Positions 801-12,826 of a DNA stretch of 12,826 bases are shown piece by piece; positions within the stretch are counted from its first letter, which is position 1, and each line of letters starts with the position of its first letter. The translations under genes were made by a program, and so were the position numbers. The notes below the pieces were generated by a model. The model had not been told where the DNA came from. It made no database searches and was given only the letters and a program-made list of their open reading frames with translations. Origin of the DNA: a virus. Taxonomy: Duplodnaviria; Heunggongvirae; Uroviricota; Caudoviricetes. The DNA lies in IMG/VR virus record IMGVR_UViG_2939167301_000004; one strand, 5' to 3'.

Positions 801-1403
801 TTACTCACCGATCTCCTTCACGGTAATACGCAACACTGACTGACGTGATGCCAGTTGCGCACTTTTACGCGAAAAAATCATGTTCTGCGCAGGGGTGAAT
901 TTTTCACGGCTGTCATCCACCGAAGCCACGTCAGGCCTGAATCCGATGGTCGTTAAAATGTCGCTATCCTGTGCGGAATAATTAATTTTTTCACCCTTCG
1001 CAAGCCAGGACAGAAGGGCTTCACGCAGGGCATCTGTGGCACGCTGTATGGCACAGTTTCGGGCAATGGCCGTCAGCTCACTGTAGCCCATCAGCTCTGG
1101 TGCCAGTGCGGCCGCCAGTACTGTGCCGTGCTGCTGCATAAAATCATTCAGCCGGTCGCGGATGCTGATGTGCTGAACGGCTTCATGCGAACGAATATAA
1201 CGACCGGCGGCCTGATTCACCTGCCATTTTCTGACTTCGATAATATTGCGTAATTCGTCCAGGCGGCTGACATTTCTGCCTTCTCCTGACAGAAGCCGCA
1301 GATATTCCTGTTCGGCCGCTGCCAGCTCATTTTTGCGTTGCAGCCATGCTGCTTTGTTATTCTGACAGGTGTCAAAGGCCTGCTGTAAGGCTGTGCTTTC
1401 CAT
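801..1403 (-). CDS. psu: P4 Psu-like polarity suppression / capsid decoration protein
   Basis: 200-aa ORF that I recognise as Psu-like, in the expected position downstream of delta in a sid-delta-psu operon. An IS21-family end lies immediately downstream, so the last ~10 codons may not be native. Confidence 0.65.
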   Translation of the reverse strand: MESTALQQAFDTCQNNKAAWLQRKNELAAAEQEYLRLLSGEGRNVSRLDELRNIIEVRKWQVNQAAGRYIRSHEAVQHISIRDRLNDFMQQHGTVLAAALAPELMGYSELTAIARNCAIQRATDALREALLSWLAKGEKINYSAQDSDILTTIGFRPDVASVDDSREKFTPAQNMIFSRKSAQLASRQSVLRITVKEIGE

Positions 1404-1476: not shown

Positions 1477-1977
1477 TCATTCCAGACGCAGCGAATATGA
1501 TTGTGTTTTTAACCGTACTGGCGGCAGTTCCTGTTTTTCATGCAGGCGTTCTGCCAGTTCGTCCGGCGTGACCGGGCGGACAATGAAGCGGGTGATGGTC
1601 TGAAGCGTTTTAAACACCAGACCACAGCCCGGATCCGTGCACACATAAAAACGCTCGGTGACTTCCTGAGACAGACGCCGCGATGTTCTTGACAGCGCAA
1701 GGCCTTTACATCTCCGACAACAATATCCGGTAACAAGCATTCTTTTCGGGCGTTTCATACTGCCGGAGGCTGACGTCAGTGAATCGCGGTATCTCTGTTT
1801 GCCTGAAATGTATTCCATTCCTGAATCTTTACTGTCAGAGAAAAAGCTTTCACTCGCTTCAAATGTCGCAGAGCAATAAATATTCCGGCACTGTGCAATC
1901 ATTATCTTGGTGCCATCGTCCATGAAATGTGCGCGGCGGGTGTGAGCAACATGTCCACACGACGGGCAGTAAATCAT
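1477..1977 (-). CDS. delta: Delta-like late-gene transactivator (tandem Ogr-type zinc finger)
   Basis: 166 aa with two Ogr-like halves, each carrying C-x2-C ... C-x4-C motifs (CPSCGH...CRNIYC and CRRCKG...CTDPGCG). Its start overlaps the sid stop as ATGA (1974-1977). Confidence 0.8.
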   Translation of the reverse strand: MIYCPSCGHVAHTRRAHFMDDGTKIMIAQCRNIYCSATFEASESFFSDSKDSGMEYISGKQRYRDSLTSASGSMKRPKRMLVTGYCCRRCKGLALSRTSRRLSQEVTERFYVCTDPGCGLVFKTLQTITRFIVRPVTPDELAERLHEKQELPPVRLKTQSYSLRLE

Positions 1978-2641
1978 GACAGCAGTCCTCTGGCCTTAAG
2001 CACTGCTCCCTGCTGGTCTATTTTGTCCTGCCACACCTTGCGCTGTGCCGGTGTGCCTGCCACCTCATAATCCATGTGAGGAAGTGTTGCCGCTGACAGT
2101 CCGGTCAGCCGGAGAACCGGCTCGCCGGTGAGGCTGATTTGCATCTGTTTAATTTTCTGTTCCAGCGATGATTTCACCTGCTGCATGACAGCCTTTTCCG
2201 GTGCGACGTAGCCCTGATGGCCGGTGGTGTTGGCGAGCGGATTTTCCTGTACCAGAATGCTCAGATGCATTGCCCGGACAAGCGCCTCACAGGTTTCATT
2301 CAGGGCGTGTTCCAGCTCATGCTCTGCATACAGACTCAGAAGGTGATGATGTGCCTTCCGGTAGGCGGTGGCCGTGCTGTCACACGCCCCTTTCAGGCGT
2401 TCGCGTTCAAAATTCAGCACCACGGCCAGATTGTCATATTCCTGTACCAGCTCCCGGCGTGCCACGCGCTCAATGTGGCGCTGTTTCAGCTCGTCGCTCA
2501 GGACACCACCGGCTGCACGAAAGGCCGTGCGCCAGTCGTCAGCGTCGTTTCCGTCGGCCTGCGCCAGCGCATTTTTTTCCTGCTCTGTGAACCGCCCCGG
2601 GAATCCTGGAGACTAAACTTCCTGAGAAAGAGGTAAACAGG

Positions 2642-2968
2642 ATGACTAAAAATACTCGTTTTTCCCCTGAAGTCCGTCAACGGGCAGTCCGTATGGTTCT
2701 GGAAAGTCAGGGCGAATATGACTCACAATGGGCGACAATTTGTTCCATTGCTCCAAAGATTGGCTGTACGCCGGAGACTCTGCGTGTCTGGGTTCGCCAG
2801 CATGAGCGGGATACCGGGGGCGGTGATGGAGGGCTCACCACCGCTGAACGTCAGCGTCTGAAAGAGCTGGAGCGTGAAAATCGTGAACTGCGCCGCAGTA
2901 ACGATATCCTTCGCCAGGCTTCCGCTTATTTTGCGAAGGCGGAGTTCGACCGCCTCTGGAAAAAATGA
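2642..2968 (+). CDS. IS3-family transposase OrfA (HTH)
   Basis: 108-aa ORF with the N-terminal HTH and leucine-zipper-like region typical of IS3-family OrfA. An A6 run (2960-2965) sits at the orfA stop / orfB start overlap. Confidence 0.9.
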
Positions 2969-3855
2969 TGCCACTGCTGGATAAGCTGCGTGAGCAGTAC
3001 GGGGTCGGACCGCTATGCAGCGAACTGCATATTGCCCCGTCAACGTATTACCACTGTCAGCAACAGCGACATCATCCGGATAAACGCAGTGCCCGTGCGC
3101 AGCGCGATGACTGGCTGAAGAAAGAGATACAGCGCGTATACGATGAAAATCACAAGGTATACGGTGTGCGTAAAGTCTGGCGTCAGTTGTTACGGGAAGG
3201 TATCAGAGTGGCCAGATGCACTGTGGCACGTCTCATGGCGGTTATGGGACTTGCCGGTGTTCTCCGGGGTAAAAAGGTCCGTACGACCATCAGCCGGAAA
3301 GCCGTTGCCGCAGGCGACCGCGTAAACCGTCAGTTCGTGGCAGAACGACCTGACCAGCTGTGGGTGGCTGATTTTACTTACGTCAGCACATGGCAGGGCT
3401 TCGTCTATGTGGCGTTCATCATTGATGTGTTTGCCGGATACATTGTGGGGTGGCGGGTCTCATCGTCCATGGAGACGACATTCGTGCTGGATGCACTGGA
3501 GCAGGCGTTATGGGCCCGTCGACCGTCCGGCACGGTCCATCACAGTGATAAAGGTTCTCAGTATGTATCGCTGGCCTACACACAGCGGCTTAAGGAAGCC
3601 GGATTACTGGCATCAACAGGAAGTACAGGCGACTCGTATGACAACGCGATGGCGGAGAGCATCAATGGTCTTTACAAAGCGGAGGTAATACACCGTAAGA
3701 GCTGGAAAAACCGTGCAGAAGTGGAACTGGCCACACTCACGTGGGTGGACTGGTATAACAATCGACGATTGCTGGAAAGGCTGGGCCATACTCCTCCGGC
3801 AGAAGCAGAAAAAGCTTATTATGCTTCCATCGGAAACGATGATCTGGCAGCCTGA
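2965..3855 (+). CDS. IS3-family transposase OrfB (DDE catalytic domain)
   Basis: 296-aa ORF in the -1 frame relative to orfA with an rve-type DDE core. The A6 run at 2960-2965 is a candidate -1 programmed frameshift site producing an OrfAB fusion. Confidence 0.9.
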
Positions 3856-4039
3856 GTTCACAGATAAAATACTCTCCAGGAAACCCGGGGCGGTTCACTG
3901 CCCGTTCAATGGCCGTGACGGTCTCATCCATCAGGCGGGCGTTCTCAAGATGGGCGGCTCTGGCCTTTTCCAGTTGTGCCAGTGCGGGTTGCAGATATTC
4001 AGGGATAGTGTGGTCAGACATTTTCCGGCTCCTCGTCAC

Positions 4040-4111
4040 TTCAGGTTAAGAAAATTGTGACGTACACCGGACAGCAACACGACGCATTGCAGATGTGCCA
4101 GCCCTGACACA
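4040..4111 (-). promoter_or_regulatory. Candidate Psid late promoter with two TGT-N12-ACA activator dyads
   Basis: Perfect TGT-N12-ACA at 4056-4073 and 4094-4111, centred about 18 and 55 bp upstream of an inferred start near 4047 for sid (ATG 4021). This is the Ogr/Delta-type activator site architecture. Confidence 0.5.
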
Positions 4112-4190
4112 GGAGACTCATCCTCAGACCGGCAAGCCAGGAAAAGGTCGCAGGAAAAACCGGCTTACTGTTTGTTTTTTTATATTTTAC

Positions 4191-4294
4191 TGTTCACCTC
4201 TGTTCACCATAAGAAAAAAGATAAGTAATACAGTAAGTTAAAGGGTGAACAATCGCAGTAATGACTGTTCACCGTCTGTTCACCACTGTTCACC
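4191..4294. repeat. ori-like iteron cluster (six TGTTCACC octamers)
   Basis: TGTTCACC at 4191, 4201, 4266, 4277, 4287 and inverted at 4244-4251, with roughly 10-bp phasing, followed by an AT-rich tract (about 4300-4400). Matches the type I iterons bound by P4 alpha. Confidence 0.6.
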
Positions 4295-4452
4295 CGTTGA
4301 TGGGCTTTTTATGCTGTTTATTACTGTTTATTTTTATTAATTCACTGAAATAAATAAGAAAAAACAATTTGTATTTCACTATAAAAAATTCCAGGTCCTT
4401 CAGAACCCTTTGAGACCCTTCCAGTCCAGATGGATAAAAAACACACAGCCAT

Positions 4453-4520
4453 TGTAAGGTTGCCGGAACAAATTCCCCCTGTTGCGTCTGCTGAAAATAT
4501 TCACAAAATAAAGCGCTACC
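4453..4520 (+). promoter_or_regulatory. Candidate PLL late promoter upstream of vis
   Basis: Perfect TGT-N12-ACA dyad at 4453-4470 and an imperfect one about 36 bp downstream; would place a start near 4516, about 55 nt before the vis ATG. Confidence 0.4.
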
Positions 4521-4572
4521 CGAAGCCGGACGGACTTATCCGGTGCTGTATGGACATTAACGAGGTAGCCCG

Positions 4573-4839
4573 ATGCAAGCTGTTTTTTCTTCCCCGTCTC
4601 CCGCCCCTGTTACGCCACTGATGCCGCTGCCGGACATCACGCAGGAGCGTTTTTTACGTCTGCCGGAAGTGATGCACCTGTGCGGCCTGTCACGCTCGAC
4701 CATCTATGAACTCATCCGTAAGGGGGAATTTCCGCCGCAGGTGAGTCTTGGCGGTAAAAATGTGGCCTGGCTGCACTCTGAAGTCACCGCATGGATGGCC
4801 GGGCGCATTGCCGGACGCAAACGGGGGTACGACGCATGA
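4573..4839 (+). CDS. vis: AlpA-family phage regulatory protein (P4 Vis / orf88-like)
   Basis: 88-aa ORF with the AlpA-type HTH signature (RFLRLPEV...[17 protein letters not shown]); GAGG Shine-Dalgarno 7 nt upstream. Confidence 0.8.
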
Positions 4840-5435
4840 TGATGCCCGCTCTGCAAAAACTCCCTTTTTCTGGCTTGCCTTTTTCCGGCATTTGCGGATA
4901 TAGTTTTTCCGCTGTCGCAAAATCGGCAGCCGGGCGTGGAAACCCGTGTAACTCGAAGGCGACATATGACGCGCCATGCGTCTTTTTTTGTGTCGCAATC
5001 AACGCCACAGAGCGCCAGATTATGGTGTGGTGTGTGGTCAGTCGTGCAGATGGCATTCCGTGCATCCTGCCCGCGTCCGCTCATTATGCCGCAGAGTCAA
5101 TGGTAGCTCAGGCGGGGCAGCCTCCGGGCTGGCCGGTATTCTTCGAGGCCGGTATTTCCACCCCCGTCTGGGCTATCGCCATTGAGCGTGGAAACTCCGG
5201 CGATAGCAGTTATTTGCTACTCGAAGGAGGCTGCCTTATGGCTACAACCCTTACCCCCTCACACCCTGAATTTGTCTTTGTGTTTGCGGCTGTCCGTCGT
5301 GCAGACCGTCATCCCCGTATCTGTATGCTTCGCACCGTCGCCGGTGATGAACGCAGTGCCCGCCGTTCCCTTGTCCGTGACTATGTGCTCTCCCTTGCTG
5401 CCCGTCTGCCGGTGGTGGAGGTGTCCCGTGCGTAA
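4836..5435 (+). CDS. Long open frame (199 codons) spanning the immunity region; possibly eta-like; coding status uncertain
   Basis: Its ATG overlaps the vis stop as ATGA (4836-4839). The N-terminal two-thirds is low-complexity and contains the candidate PLE promoter and a terminator hairpin. There is a strong internal start (GGAGG then ATG at 5238) giving a 65-aa product in the same frame. Confidence 0.35.
4875..4904 (+). promoter_or_regulatory. Candidate sigma70 promoter (PLE-like)
   Basis: TTGCCT (4875-4880), 18-bp spacer, TATAGT (4899-4904). Confidence 0.45.
4968..4989 (+). terminator. Intrinsic terminator-like hairpin in the leader (attenuator candidate)
   Basis: GACGC-gccat-GCGTC stem-loop followed by seven T residues, about 60 nt downstream of the candidate promoter. 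Confidence 0.4.
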
Positions 5436-6633: not shown

Positions 6634-8967
6634 ATGAAAATGAACGTAACCGCCACCGTCAGCCATGCGCTCGGCCACTGGCCGCGTATTCTCCCGGTGC
6701 TGGGGATTCAGGTGCTGAAGAACCGTCATCAGCCCTGTCCGGTCTGTGGCGGGAGTGACCGCTTCCGTTTTGATGACAGGGAGGGGCGCGGCACCTGGTA
6801 CTGCAATCAGTGTGGTGCCGGTGACGGCCTGAAACTGGTTGAAAAGGTGTTTGGTGTCTCCCCGTCCGACGCGGCCGCAAAGGTGGCTGCCGTGACCGGC
6901 AGCCTGCCCCCGGCTGACCCGGCAGTGACGGCCGCCGCCGGTGCTGAAACAGACGCTGCCCGGAAGAACGCCGCCGCACTGGCACAAACCCTGATGGCAA
7001 AAACTCGTCCCGGAACCGGTAACGCCTACCTGACCCGCAAGGGCTTTCCCGGCCGGGAATGCCGGATGCTGACCGGCACACACAGAGCCGGTGGCGTGAG
7101 CTGGCGTGCCGGTGACCTTGTGGTGCCACTGTATGACGACAGCGGCGAGCTGGTTAACCTTCAGTTAATCAGTGCTGACGGCCATAAGCGCACCCTGAAA
7201 GGCGGACAGGTCAGGGGCACCTGTCACACCCTTGAAGGACAGAATCAGGCCGGAAAACGTCTGTGGATAGCGGAGGGATACGCGACCGCACTTACCGTAC
7301 ATCACCTGACCGGTGAAACGGTGATGGTGGCGCTTTCTTCCGTGAACCTCCTTTCTCTGACCAGCCTTGCCCGGCAGAAGCATCCGGCCTGTCAGATTGT
7401 CCTTGCCGCAGACCGTGACCTCAGCGGTGACGGCCAGAAAAAAGCCGCCGCAGCCGCAGATGCGTGTGAGGGCGTTGTTGCCCTGCCGCCGGTCTTCGGT
7501 GACTGGAATGATGCCTTCACGCAGTACGGCGGGGAGGCCACCCGTAAGGCCATTTATGATGCCATCCGGCCACCGGCTGAAAGCCCGTTCGACACCATGA
7601 GCGAAGCAGAGTTTTCCGCCATGAGTACCAGCGAAAAGGCCATGCGTATCTATGAGCATTACGGCGAGGCGCTCGCGGTCGATGCCAACGGCCAGCTTCT
7701 GTCCCGTTATGAAAATGGTGTCTGGAAGGTGCTGCCGCCACAGGACTTTGCCCGGGATGTGGCCGGGCTGTTTCAGCGTCTGCGCGCGCCGTTCTCCTCC
7801 GGGAAGGTGGCCTCCGTGGTGGACACCCTGAAGCTGATTATTCCGCAGCAGGAAGCCCCCTCCCGCCGCCTGATTGGCTTTCGTAACGGCGTGCTCGACA
7901 CGCAGAACGGCACGTTCCACCCGCACAGTCCGTCACACTGGATGCGCACCCTGTGCGATGTGGATTTCACCCCGCCGGTGGACGGTGAAACGCTGGAGAC
8001 CCACGCCCCCGCGTTCTGGCGCTGGCTTGACCGTGCCGCCGGTGGCCGTGCGGAAAAACGCGACGTGATTCTGGCCGCACTGTTTATGGTGCTGGCAAAC
8101 CGCTACGACTGGCAGCTCTTTCTGGAGGTGACCGGTCCCGGCGGCAGCGGCAAAAGTATCATGGCCGAAATAGCCACCCTGCTGGCCGGGGAGGATAACG
8201 CCACGTCGGCCACCATTGAGACGCTGGAATCCCCGCGTGAACGTGCCGCGTTAACTGGCTTCTCACTGATACGCCTGCCGGACCAGGAAAAATGGAGCGG
8301 CGACGGTGCCGGACTCAAGGCCATCACCGGCGGCGATGCGGTGTCCGTTGACCCGAAATACCGGGATGCGTACTCCACGCACATCCCGGCGGTGATTCTG
8401 GCCGTGAACAATAACCCGATGCGCTTCACCGACCGCAGCGGCGGCGTGTCACGCCGGCGGGTGATTATTCACTTCCCGGAACAGATAGCCCCGCAGGAGC
8501 GCGACCCGCAGCTTAAGGACAAAATCACCCGCGAGCTGGCGGTCATCGTGCGTCACCTGATGCAGAAATTCAGCGACCCGATGCTCGCCCGGTCACTGCT
8601 TCAGTCCCAGCAGAACTCAGACGAGGCACTGAACATCAAACGGGATGCCGACCCGACGTTTGATTTTATCGGCTATCTGGAAACCCTGCCGCAGACCAGC
8701 GGCATGTATATGGGGAACGCCAGTATCATCCCGCGTAATTACCGTAAATACCTCTATCACGCCTATCTGGCCTACATGGAGGCAAACGGCTACCGGAATG
8801 TACTCAGTCTGAAAATGTTCGGGCTGGGGCTGCCGGTGATGCTGAAGGAATACGGACTGAATTACGAGAAGCGCCATACCAAACAGGGGATACAGACCAA
8901 CCTGACGCTGAAAGAGGAAAGCTACGGCGACTGGCTGCCAAAATGTGACGACCCTGCAACAACCTGA
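6634..8967 (+). CDS. alpha: P4 alpha-type primase-helicase
   Basis: 777-aa ORF with an N-terminal Cys4 zinc motif (CPVCGG...CNQCG), a central primase region and a C-terminal P-loop NTPase (GPGGSGKS); AAGGAG Shine-Dalgarno. Confidence 0.9.
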   Translation: MKMNVTATVSHALGHWPRILPVLGIQVLKNRHQPCPVCGGSDRFRFDDREGRGTWYCNQCGAGDGLKLVEKVFGVSPSDAAAKVAAVTGSLPPADPAVTAAAGAETDAARKNAAALAQTLMAKTRPGTGNAYLTRKGFPGRECRMLTGTHRAGGVSWRAGDLVVPLYDDSGELVNLQLISADGHKRTLKGGQVRGTCHTLEGQNQAGKRLWIAEGYATALTVHHLTGETVMVALSSVNLLSLTSLARQKHPACQIVLAADRDLSGDGQKKAAAAADACEGVVALPPVFGDWNDAFTQYGGEATRKAIYDAIRPPAESPFDTMSEAEFSAMSTSEKAMRIYEHYGEALAVDANGQLLSRYENGVWKVLPPQDFARDVAGLFQRLRAPFSSGKVASVVDTLKLIIPQQEAPSRRLIGFRNGVLDTQNGTFHPHSPSHWMRTLCDVDFTPPVDGETLETHAPAFWRWLDRAAGGRAEKRDVILAALFMVLANRYDWQLFLEVTGPGGSGKSIMAEIATLLAGEDNATSATIETLESPRERAALTGFSLIRLPDQEKWSGDGAGLKAITGGDAVSVDPKYRDAYSTHIPAVILAVNNNPMRFTDRSGGVSRRRVIIHFPEQIAPQERDPQLKDKITRELAVIVRHLMQKFSDPMLARSLLQSQQNSDEALNIKRDADPTFDFIGYLETLPQTSGMYMGNASIIPRNYRKYLYHAYLAYMEANGYRNVLSLKMFGLGLPVMLKEYGLNYEKRHTKQGIQTNLTLKEESYGDWLPKCDDPATT

Positions 8968-9008: not shown

Positions 9009-9026
9009 ATCCCGATATCCCCCGCA

Positions 9027-9320
9027 GGTGAACAATCCACTGTTCACCCTTCACCGTATATTCACCCGTTATCATACTGAAATTAAAAGAGAAAAACGAA
9101 AGGTGAACAGTGTGAACAATCAAATCAAAAAAAACTTTTTTCTTCCTGAGTGATTTCAGTACGGGGGATTAATCACCGGTATGAGTCACACCGGCAGAAT
9201 GCCGGAGGTGAAGAATCGAATGTTCACCCTTCACCCATTATTCACCACCTATCACTCTGAAATAAAAGGAGAAAACAGAAAGGTGAACAGTGTGAACAGT
9301 TCTTTCGAAAAAAAATTTTT
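9027..9320. repeat. crr-like region: two ~115-bp direct repeats carrying iterons
   Basis: Units at about 9027-9140 and 9207-9320 (180-bp period), each with GGTGAACA / TGTTCACC / TTCACC(C/G) / TGTGAACA octamers. Confidence 0.65.
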
Positions 9321-9342
9321 TATGTGGATAAAAGATGCACTG

Positions 9343-9510: not shown

Positions 9511-9533
9511 GTTTGAGTCCGGCCTTCGCACCA
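9511..9533 (+). other. attP-type core resembling the 3' end of a tRNA-Leu gene
   Basis: GTTTGAGTCCGGCCTTCGCACCA resembles a T-loop / acceptor-stem / CCA 3' end. There is no upstream tRNA body: the 5' T-stem complement is absent. Confidence 0.5.
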
Positions 9534-9650: not shown

Positions 9651-9731
9651 TACTGATGCGGGTACAACTGCGGGTATTTCCCGGTTCGATAATGTTTGTA
9701 CCCACACAGAACCCTTGAAAGGATACTCATC

Positions 9732-10833
9732 ATGGCTCTGAGTGATGTGAAGGTTCGTTCGGCTAAGCCTGAAGCAAAAGCCTATAAGCTGACCGACGGT
9801 GAAGGCATGGTTTTGCTGGTTCACCCTAACGGCTCCAAATACTGGCGGCTACGTTATCGCTTTGGCGGTAAAGAGAAGATGCTGGCATTGGGGAAATACC
9901 CCGAAGTGTCGTTGGCGGATGCCAGGGCACGCCGGGATGAGGCTCGTAAGCTTTTAGCTAATGGTGTCGATCCCAGTGAAAACAAGAAAGCTGTTAAGGT
10001 AGAACAGGAACAAGAGGCGATAACGTTGAAGTAGTCGCCAGAGACTGGCACGCCAGCAATCAGAAGTGGTCGGCATCGCATAGCGCTCGTGTTTTGAAAA
10101 GTCTGGAGGATAATCTCTTTACTGCTATCGGTAAGCGGAACATTGCGGAACTGAAGACGCGGGATCTTCTTGTACCCATTAAAGCAGTCGAGTCATCCGG
10201 GCGGCTCGAAGTTGCCGCCCGTTTACAGCAGCGTACTACCGCGATTATGCGCTTTGCCGTTCAGAGCGGCTTAATCGACTACAACCCCGCGCAAGAGATT
10301 GCAGGTGCGGTTGCTACGGCGAAAAGACAGCACCGTGCAGCTCTTGAACTGAACCGTATACCTGAATTACTTCATCGCATAGATCACTATTCTGGCAGAC
10401 CGTTAACTCGGCTGGCGGTTGAACTCACTTTATTGGTTTTCATCCGTTCGAGCGAGCTGCATTTTGCCCGCTGGTCAGAAGTAGATTTTGAAACGGCTAT
10501 GTGGACAATCCCAGGTGAGCGTGAGCAACTGGAAGGAGTCAAGCATTCTCAGCGTGGCTCGAAGATGCGGACACCACACCTTGTACCTTTGTCGCGGCAG
10601 GCCCTAAGTATTTTGGAAAAGATCAAAAGCATGAGCGGAAATTGAGAGCTGATTTTTGTGGGCGATCACGATCCACGTAAGCCGATGAGTGAGAATACGG
10701 TGAACAAGGCTTTGCGCGTAATGGGGTATGACACGAAGGTCGAGGTTTGTGGGCATGGCTTCAGGACGATGGCTTGTAGTTCGTTGATTGAGTCGGGATT
10801 ATGGTCGAGGGATGCGGTAGAGCGGCAGATGAG
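9732..10833 (+). pseudogene. int: P4-type tyrosine integrase, inactivated
   Basis: N-terminal MALSDVKVRSAKPEAKAYKLTDGEG... is a P4-family integrase signature. There is a frameshift near 10020-10035, an in-frame TGA at 10643-10645, and a 3' truncation by IS629 at 10834 (about 368 codons retained; the catalytic C-terminus is missing). Confidence 0.8.
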
Positions 10834-10875
10834 TGAACCGCCCCGGGTTTCCTGGAGAGTGTTTTATCTGTGAAC

Positions 10876-11762
10876 TCAGGCTGCCAGATCATCGTTTCCG
10901 ATGGAAGCATAATAAGCTTTTTCTGCTTCTGCCGGAGGAGTATGGCCCAGCCTTTCCAGCAATCGTCGATTGTTATACCAGTCCACCCACGTGAGTGTGG
11001 CCAGTTCCACTTCTGCACGGTTTTTCCAGCTCTTACGGTGTATTACCTCCGCTTTGTAAAGACCATTGATGCTCTCCGCCATCGCGTTGTCATACGAGTC
11101 GCCTGTACTTCCTGTTGATGCCAGTAATCCGGCTTCCTTAAGCCGCTGTGTGTAGGCCAGCGATACATACTGAGAACCTTTATCACTGTGATGGACCGTG
11201 CCGGACGGTCGACGGGCCCATAACGCCTGCTCCAGTGCATCCAGCACGAATGTCGTTTCCATGGACGATGAGACCCGCCACCCCACGATGTATCCGGCAA
11301 ACACATCAATGATGAACGCCACATAGACGAAGCCCCGCCATGTGCTGACGTAAGTAAAATCAGCCACCCACAGCTGGTCAGGTCGTTCTGCCACGAACTG
11401 ACGGTTTACGCGGTCGCCTGCGGCAACGGCTTTCCGGCTGATGGTCGTACGGACCTTTTTACCCCGGAGAACACCGGCAAGTCCCATAACCGCCATGAGA
11501 CGTGCCACAGTGCATCTGGCCACTCTGATACCTTCCCGTAACAACTGACGCCAGACTTTACGCACACCGTATACCTTGTGATTTTCATCGTATACGCGCT
11601 GTATCTCTTTCTTCAGCCAGTCATCGCGCTGCGCACGGGCACTGCGTTTATCCGGATGATGTCGCTGTTGCTGACAGTGGTAATACGTTGACGGGGCAAT
11701 ATGCAGTTCGCTGCATAGCGGTCCGACCCCGTACTGCTCACGCAGCTTATCCAGCAGTGGCA

Positions 11763-11766
<4 letters not shown>
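10876..11766 (-). CDS. IS3-family transposase OrfB (copy B)
   Basis: 296 aa, one substitution (Q to R) relative to copy A OrfB. Confidence 0.9.

Positions 11767-12826
<1,060 letters not shown>

Follow-up and report, generated by a model that had tools for sequence, protein, structure and literature searches.

The design of the Delta/Ogr-responsive late promoters of phage P2 and satellite P4 was worked out in the 1980s and 1990s. The late promoters of P2 that depend on Ogr have the consensus motif TGT-N12-ACA (PMC3931495), P4 is trans-activated by the Ogr protein of P2, of which Delta is a homologue (PMC7552001; PMC8628076), and the genes psu, delta and sid have one promoter common to all three (PMC13586616). 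We analyzed a stretch of 12,826 nucleotides of viral DNA (IMG/VR record IMGVR_UViG_2939167301_000004), referred to below as the window, in which three perfect dyads of this type lie between sid and vis. Our comparison indicates that these dyads are very likely the known late-promoter activator sites of a P4-type satellite, belonging to the promoters Psid and PLL, and that an insertion sequence (IS) in sid probably uncouples delta and psu. The identity and the design of the sites are already known from P4 and P2, and in this respect there is nothing new.

In the mechanism that we favor, transcription from Psid would proceed leftward into sid-delta-psu, and that from PLL rightward into vis and the operon for replication. 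The dyad would be bound by a zinc-finger activator, supplied either by the element itself (Delta) or by an infecting P2-type helper (Ogr), which would recruit RNA polymerase. Bound to the dyads at -55, it would switch on both divergent late transcripts from weak promoters that possess a -10 element only.

The window contains a P4-type satellite

Judged by its similarity to P4, the window is a P4-type satellite phage. Overall, it is 95 to 99% identical to P4, with collinearity over positions 833 to 2587 (99.0% identity) and from 3898 to at least 7400 (97.1%); identity in the segment 3900-4900 is 95.4%. The gene order psu-delta-sid, origin (ori), vis-...-alpha is that of P4, and in the P4 records X51522 and NC_001609 the corresponding positions are annotated as sid, ORF88 (vis) and ori. 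Pfam matches in the window comprise Psu, Ogr_Delta, Phage_AlpA, Phage_ASH, the Derepression family, DUF5375 and primase domains.

The last gene of the sid operon is psu (801-1403, minus strand; Pfam Psu, E=5e-88), which encodes the polarity suppression and capsid decoration protein. Its open reading frame (ORF) has 200 amino acids as compared to 190 in P4, and is 10 codons longer because the homology to P4 ends at position 833, inside the psu stop codon; an IS21-type IstB gene adjoins this end. The delta gene (1477-1977, minus strand) has an intact ORF of 166 amino acids, 163 of which are identical in P4 Delta. Two stretches of the protein match Pfam Ogr_Delta (E=6e-22), corresponding to two Ogr-like zinc-finger domains, and both CX2C...CX4C motifs are present. 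The ORF of vis (4573-4839, plus strand), the first gene downstream of PLL, is also intact and encodes an AlpA-family helix-turn-helix protein of 88 amino acids that shares 87 of them with P4 ORF88 (Pfam Phage_AlpA, E=7e-21). The alpha primase-helicase gene was located by Pfam at 6634-8967, and further genes are an Ash/Icd-like gene, the gene for a derepression (epsilon-type) protein, orf151 and orf106.

In contrast to P4, the window has a sid gene that is split by an IS, and its homology to P4 reaches no further than the stop codon of psu. The window was found to contain no cos, gop, beta or cII sequences, and the integrase fragments at 9696-10645 are frameshifted and interrupted by a second IS. 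The same element is present in Escherichia coli EJN001, where it is 100% identical and its sid gene is uninterrupted; this IS-free allele lies at 439334-440068 of NZ_CP086338. The downstream junction in EJN001 is identical as well, consisting of alpha, an att-like core, a frameshifted integrase remnant, a second IS copy, an IstB fragment and TetR. The possibility that the order alpha-crr-att-int represents the unintegrated P4 arrangement was rejected, since the EJN001 locus places the int fragment in a neighboring degraded island.

Architecture of the sid-side promoter

A pattern search found perfect TGT-N12-ACA dyads at each of the three positions reported in the original prediction, namely, 4056-4073 (TGTGACGTACACCGGACA), 4094-4111 (TGTGCCAGCCCTGACACA) and 4453-4470 (TGTAAGGTTGCCGGAACA). 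The distance between the first two, given as 38 bp, was measured at the same value from start to start. Since the P4 records X51522 and NC_001609 annotate no promoters, we used the P2 record AF063097, with its annotated late transcript starts and "activator binding sites," as an independent ruler for the promoter geometry. Measured from the annotated starts, the dyad centers in P2 are at -55.5 (PP and PO) and -57.5 (PF).

According to this geometry, the -10-like hexamer of Psid is CACAAT at 4054-4059 (minus strand), and the P2 register predicts a sid transcript start 7 nt downstream, at ~4047 (minus strand). The predicted leader to the sid ATG at 4021 has 26 nt. The distal dyad at 4094-4111, which reads TGTGTCAGGGCTGGCACA in the sid direction (minus strand), is centered at 4102.5, or approximately -55.5 from this start, and is the site expected to mediate activation by Delta or Ogr. 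The proximal dyad at 4056-4073 (minus strand; TGTCCGGTGTACGTCACA in the sid direction) is centered at 4064.5, approximately -17.5, and its downstream ACA arm sits within the Psid -10 hexamer. Both centers agree with the values near -55 and -18 that had been proposed for the sid side. In the region 3990-4190, a single base differs from P4, and it is located outside the dyads; identity is complete over both dyads, the interval that separates them, the -10 hexamer and the leader.

In P4, Delta reportedly binds a second site in Psid at -18, and activation is said not to need that site. We take the known P4 footprint positions in Psid, -55 and -18, to be the two sid-side dyads of the window. The dyad at 4056-4073 would then be where Delta binds Psid a second time, near -18. 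It overlaps the -10 element, and its role would be modulatory and not required for activation. The 1984-era record X02534 annotates a "-10 consensus" and a "5' untranslated region" that fall in the distal dyad and in ori, and these annotations were treated as superseded predictions.

Architecture of the vis-side promoter

The third dyad, at 4453-4470 (plus strand), had been described as lying upstream of vis, and its distance to the vis ATG is 103 bp. Its center, at 4461.5, precedes the predicted PLL start by some 55 bp. The register of the annotated P2 starts identifies CAAAAT at 4504-4509 (plus strand) as the -10-like hexamer of PLL and predicts a start 7 nt downstream, at ~4516-4517 (plus strand), resulting in a leader of 56 nt to the vis ATG. 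In comparison with P4, both arms of the dyad are kept, its distance from vis is unchanged and there are four changes in the spacer (TGTAAGGTTGCCGGAACA versus TGTAAGACAGCCTGAACA in P4). The PLL arms, -10 hexamer and leader are identical to those of P4, and the region ...AAAATATTCACAAAATA... around the -10 hexamer is conserved in nearly all P4-like sequences.

Rfam matches downstream of vis correspond to isrK (4911-4988) and C4 (5096-5183), the latter being taken to be the P4 CI-type immunity RNA. Since the immunity RNAs (4911-5183) lie downstream of vis, the vis-side dyad is assigned to the upstream, late promoter. An RNA structure in the conserved vis leader (4515-4580) was discarded, since its predicted folding did not surpass that of shuffled sequence (z=-0.44). 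A scan of 3950-4650 for a sigma-70 -35/-10 pair returned zero matches; as expected, this is consistent with Psid and PLL being activator-dependent promoters.

Comparison with the late promoters of P2

The sites match their P4 homologues and the dyad-to-start register of P2. Their assignment as Ogr/Delta-type activator sites, as originally proposed, is borne out at the level of sequence by the identity with P4, the P2 register and the conservation of the arms. The late promoters of P2 and those of the window appear to have in common a dyad approximately 55.5 to 57.5 bp upstream of the start, the absence of a -35 element and an Ogr/Delta zinc-finger activator, and the distal Psid half-site TGTGTCAG of the window is identical to the half-site of P2 PO.

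There are also several differences. The activator sites of P2 are imperfect, with the form TGT-N12-CCA, and that of PV is TGT-N11-ACA, whereas the three sites of the window are perfect. The idea that the dyads define divergent late promoters is upheld by the register and the fitting -10 hexamers, but the perfection of the dyads does not define the class. In P2, PP and PO have one common site between two starts that are 111 bp apart, whereas Psid and PLL in the window have a site each, separated by ~360 bp, with the origin in between. Furthermore, P2 late promoters lack a second site at -18, unlike Psid.

A replication origin between the two promoters

The P4 origin, which the original prediction had overlooked, is located between the two promoters. 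Six type-1 iterons (TGTTCACC) of a P4-type ori start at 4191, 4201, 4244 (minus strand), 4266, 4277 and 4287 and span 4191-4294. These iterons are annotated as "ori type 1 repeat" in X51522 and NC_001609 and are identical to those of P4 in the alignment. Two 120-bp crr repeats were found at 9022-9141 and 9202-9321. With iterons between sid and vis, and alpha and crr in cis, the window contains a P4 replication origin, in which alpha would bind the iterons.

Just upstream of the PLL dyad, at 4397-4426, there are three tandem 10-bp repeats (CCTTCAGAAC, CCTTTGAGAC and CCTTCCAGTC) in the position of the P4 "ori type 2 repeats," but their sequence is unrelated to the P4 allele. Among P4-type elements, this block of 10-bp repeats occurs as three different alleles. 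For annotation purposes, recognition of the dyads permits a precise placement of Psid, PLL and ori.

Conservation of the sites in P4-like satellites

The conservation of the sites was assessed in a sample composed of six divergent loci, retrieved through Psu, and 120 IMG/VR viral contigs, retrieved through a 20-mer located in the vis leader. With the window and P4 included, this sample provided 110 unique sid-vis intergenic regions, of which 108 were analyzed in register. The distal Psid dyad was a perfect TGT-N12-ACA in 109 of the 110 unique regions, with 14 different spacers. In all 108 sequences in register, CA[C/G]AAT was present at a fixed offset from the distal dyad, and a second site was located exactly 38 bp downstream of it; in most of them, the sid ATG was at a fixed distance of 73 nt from the dyad edge. 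The proximal site was perfect only in 49 P4-type sequences, and the other 59 had TGT-N12-AGA.

Information content was computed on 11 nonredundant representatives that were <93% identical to each other. In these, the arms of the distal Psid site had 2.0 bits as compared to 1.17 bits for the spacer, and the central positions -56/-55 had ~0 bits; the upstream flank had 0.83 bits. The corresponding values for the proximal site were 1.89 bits (arms) and 0.95 bits (spacer). The Psid consensus reads TGTGcCA...cTg.cACA, followed by GTTGT at -28 to -24 and CAgAAT at -12 to -7, and the upstream TGT arm of the proximal dyad lies within the invariant GTTGT. A symmetric protein-binding site that keeps a constant distance to a core promoter is expected to give this pattern.

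The arms of the PLL site were perfect in 48 of the 49 unique P4-type sequences, with a spacer that occurred in seven variants and an upstream block that occurred as three unrelated alleles, although the low divergence inside the P4-type clade limits the power of this conservation argument. Satellites with a single-domain Delta of 72 to 86 amino acids, such as L007 from Tatumella and L008 from Citrobacter, which we take to be of the phiR73 type, have the same Psid layout as the window, including a perfect distal dyad. They differ from it in the proximal site, TGT-N12-AGA, and in the -10 hexamer, CAGAAT instead of CACAAT. At the PLL register, these single-domain-Delta satellites contained no N12 dyad, and TGT-N11-ACA was often present instead. 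The PLL site can therefore not be generalized beyond the P4-type clade.

These data bear on whether the proximal dyad at 4056-4073 is an activator site at all or whether, instead, it reflects constraint on the core promoter, its perfect form in P4 being incidental. The base that changes in the TGT-N12-AGA of the 59 sequences, those of the single-domain-Delta satellites, is the variable position of CA[C/G]AAT, and the invariant GTTGT at -28 to -24 is wider than the TGT arm; both observations agree with a core-promoter constraint. However, the spacing of 38 bp is exact in 108 of 108 sequences, even distant elements retain five of the six bases of the arms, and the perfect form strictly co-occurs with a two-domain Delta. 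The footprint that Delta is said to leave at -18 also counts against a purely core-promoter origin, which we regard as possible but unlikely. We favor the interpretation of the proximal dyad as a second Delta site.

The distribution of the two Delta types provides one mildly new observation, which older literature may already contain. All of the 45 sequences (of 108) that encode a two-domain Delta had the perfect dyad at -18, and all but one had the perfect N12 dyad at PLL. Of the 55 sequences with a single-domain Delta, 53 lacked an N12 dyad at PLL and had nothing but TGT-N12-AGA at -18, and the remaining two are P4-type elements whose delta ORFs are shortened. That the architecture of Delta and the pattern of promoter sites co-evolved in P4-like satellites is a tentative and rather doubtful proposal, as shared ancestry confounds the co-occurrence. 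If this co-evolution were functional, the tandem-domain Delta would have gained the occupancy of a site overlapping the -10 element and a dedicated vis-side site. P4-type elements would then have an autoregulatory layer that their single-domain relatives lack, and in the window this layer would still exist in cis, but the IS would isolate it from its activator.

An insertion sequence separates Psid from delta and psu

The sid gene is interrupted by an IS3-family element of 1310 bp (2588-3897, plus strand) with orfA at 2642-2968 and orfB at 2965-3855. It contains an ALIL frameshift pseudoknot (2923-3039, 120 bits), matches to Pfam HTH_Tnp_1 and rve, and terminal inverted repeats, and on either side of it there is a copy of the duplicated 3-bp target, CTG (2585-2587 and 3898-3900). 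The transposase is encoded on the plus strand, so that the element is antisense to sid and its operon. In matching E. coli records, the element is annotated as IS3-like, IS1203 family; its length of 1310 bp is presumably that of an IS629-like element. The 5' fragment of sid (3898-4021, minus strand) retains codons 1 to 41, fused to 53 IS-derived codons, and the 3' fragment is located at 1974-2587 (minus strand). In silico removal of the IS and one CTG copy restored a Sid protein of 244 amino acids, 243 of which are identical to P4. This IS-sid junction was absent from 5,426 complete E. coli genomes.

Since sid-delta-psu form one operon under the control of Psid, the IS separates this promoter from delta and psu. 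The ORF of the sid-IS fusion stops at ~3736, so that ~1760 nt of untranslated antisense-IS RNA precede the delta ATG. Long untranslated IS RNA is a classic substrate for Rho-dependent termination, and for this reason Rho-dependent polarity is to be expected. A polar effect of the IS on delta and psu is thus likely, and because transcripts from Psid must cross 1.3 kb of antisense IS, the output of Delta and Psu from this promoter is probably much reduced. A scan of the minus strand of the IS detected no convincing intrinsic terminator, the sole match being a 5-bp stem at 3888-3876 of a quality that shuffled sequence also reached; transcripts may therefore read through to delta to some extent. 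A search of the IS for an outward sigma-70-like promoter that could drive delta found none.

It had been suggested that the late circuit, in which delta activates sid/psu and vis, is intact despite the disruption of sid. This holds for its parts, given that delta, vis and the three sites are intact, but not for their connection, as the IS lies between Psid and delta/psu and polarity is likely. The strongest version of the suggestion is a fully functional circuit, in which transcripts from Psid read through the IS, Delta and Psu are made, the Delta feedback is kept and only Sid is lost. The intact ORFs of delta, psu and vis, the three intact sites and the lack of a strong minus-strand intrinsic terminator in the IS are all compatible with it, and Psu, as the name of its Pfam family indicates, suppresses Rho-dependent polarity. 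Nevertheless, the ~1760 untranslated nucleotides stand between Psid and delta, psu itself is downstream of the block, so that there would be no relief of polarity until Psu is expressed, and the IS offers delta no recognizable outward promoter. Full function of the circuit is consequently improbable in our view. The reading that we prefer is that the cis sites and the activator gene are intact but probably uncoupled, and that the self-sustaining Delta loop is probably broken. As far as can be judged from their sequences, the promoters may remain able to respond in cis, for example, to the Ogr of a helper.

The window copy is in this sense a degraded satellite, with a split sid and with delta and psu separated from their promoter. 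It is probably unable to sustain its own late program or to redirect capsid size.

Other regulators and chance matches

The dyads could in principle bind a regulator other than Delta or Ogr, such as the host protein CRP or Vis. The dyad at 4056-4073 starts with TGTGA, which is a CRP half-site, and Vis has been reported to regulate both late promoters. The CRP consensus, TGTGA-N6-TCACA, is equivalent to TGT-N10-ACA, whereas all three sites of the window have an N12 spacing, as do the annotated activator sites of P2. As for Vis, the protein is 99% identical to that of P4, yet the sole strongly divergent block is located upstream of the dyad. Binding of either protein in place of Delta or Ogr is very unlikely.

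The motif TGT-N12-ACA fixes only six bases and is statistically weak on its own. The whole window contains 6 matches, as compared to 3.1 expected by chance, and 58 versions with one mismatch, as compared to 57.5 expected; because the frequency of the latter equals the chance rate, we left them uninterpreted. Dinucleotide shuffles of the whole window gave P=0.018 for three matches inside 481 bp, and shuffles of the 551-bp intergenic region alone gave P=0.0018, whereas a pair of dyads at exactly 38-bp spacing had P=0.0003. The clustering of the dyads thus beats chance, though only modestly. Since the pattern is weak and the support from clustering is moderate, the functional case for the dyads rests on their context and on the comparison with related elements.

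That comparison refutes the notion that the three dyads match a loose six-base pattern merely by chance, for which the match counts alone might speak and which we consider practically negligible: beyond the clustering (P=0.002 to 0.018) and the 38-bp pair, the sites are identical or arm-conserved in P4, and their arms are constant and their spacers variable across the 110 regions. Two other matches in the window, at 4947 and 6159, do look like chance, as the homologous positions in P4 are not dyads. The sixth match, at 8944, is situated outside the P4 stretch compared.

Delta architecture and activator sites

Delta sequences and promoter sites were counted over the P4-like satellites collected for comparison (loci L005-L130). 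All 45 two-domain Delta sequences, mostly of 166 amino acids, co-occurred with a perfect TGT-N12-ACA dyad at -18 of Psid, the predicted leftward late promoter of sid-delta-psu, and for 44 of these 45 a perfect N12 dyad was also found at PLL, the predicted rightward late promoter of vis. Single-domain Delta (72-86 amino acids) was accompanied by TGT-N12-AGA at -18, a CAGAAT -10 element and no N12 dyad at PLL in 53 of 55 cases; the two exceptions, both of P4 type, are L033 and L096, whose delta ORFs are shortened. This co-occurrence of Delta domain number and site pattern is confounded by shared ancestry.

Phage P2 (AF063097) has its divergent promoters PP and PO arranged with starts 111 bp apart and one common annotated activator site midway. 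The P2 late-promoter stretches compared (3016-3127, 10239-10308, and 17555-17628) contain imperfect sites, TGT-N12-CCA or, in PV, TGT-N11-ACA. The perfect dyads of P4 therefore fit the "consensus" better than do the helper's own promoters.

Conservation at Psid (~4040-4082) was inspected in 11 divergent P4-like sid-vis intergenic regions (<93% mutual identity). Beyond the dyad arms and the -10, three more elements were invariant in all 11: TC (-35/-34), GTTGT (-28 to -24), and TGA (+5 to +7).

The sid-vis region

The interval of the original prediction, 4040-4520, also holds the replication origin of P4, whose six TGTTCACC iterons lie at 4191-4294. The PLL dyad is closely preceded by three "type 2" repeats of 10 bp each (4397-4426). 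Those of the window (CCTTCAGAAC, CCTTTGAGAC, and CCTTCCAGTC) represent another allele than the GCTTTAAGTG-like repeats of P4, and a third, unrelated allele was found among P4-type elements. The alleles of this block differ although Vis is 99% identical.

A 20-mer, GCTACCCGAAGCCGGACGGA (4515-4534), has its 5' end at the predicted PLL start. At least 120 IMG/VR contigs carry it without mismatch, as does a Tatumella element with a Psu identity of only 61%. Its 5' GCUACC is able to pair with GGUAGC beside the vis Shine-Dalgarno sequence; the fold of the vis leader around this pairing did not exceed that of shuffled sequence (z = -0.44).

Downstream of vis, Rfam matches to isrK (4911-4988; 71 bits) and to the C4 antisense RNA (5096-5183; 77 bits) lie within or overlap an Ash/Icd-like ORF (4791-5435) and mark a P4-type RNA immunity region. 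The crr replication region (9022-9321) consists of two 120-bp direct repeats with 81% identity. Relative to the attP core of P4, an att core-like sequence, GAGTCCGGCCTTCGCACCA (9515-9533), shows a 1-nt deletion.

Insertion sequences and element ends

After codon 41, sid is interrupted by a 1,310-bp IS3-family (IS629/IS1203-like) insertion (within 2585-3900), flanked by a 3-bp target duplication, CTG. A search of 5,426 complete E. coli genomes found the IS-sid junction in none of them, and the empty site is present with 100% identity in E. coli EJN001 (NZ_CP086338, ~439945). A second, inverted copy (10832-12143), 99% identical to the first, has differing flanks (GAG, GTA) in place of a target duplication and cuts short a tyrosine-integrase remnant that carries a frameshift (9696-10034 and 10094-10645). 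In EJN001, the integrase is part of a degraded neighboring island and not of the P4-type element.

Sequences of cos, gop, beta, and cII are all absent from the window. At the left end, an IS21-type IstB gene (1-747) adjoins the psu end. The psu ORF has 200 instead of 190 amino acids because P4 homology ends at 833, within the stop codon. The same IstB-psu junction is also found in E. coli B1-56 (NZ_AP040249).
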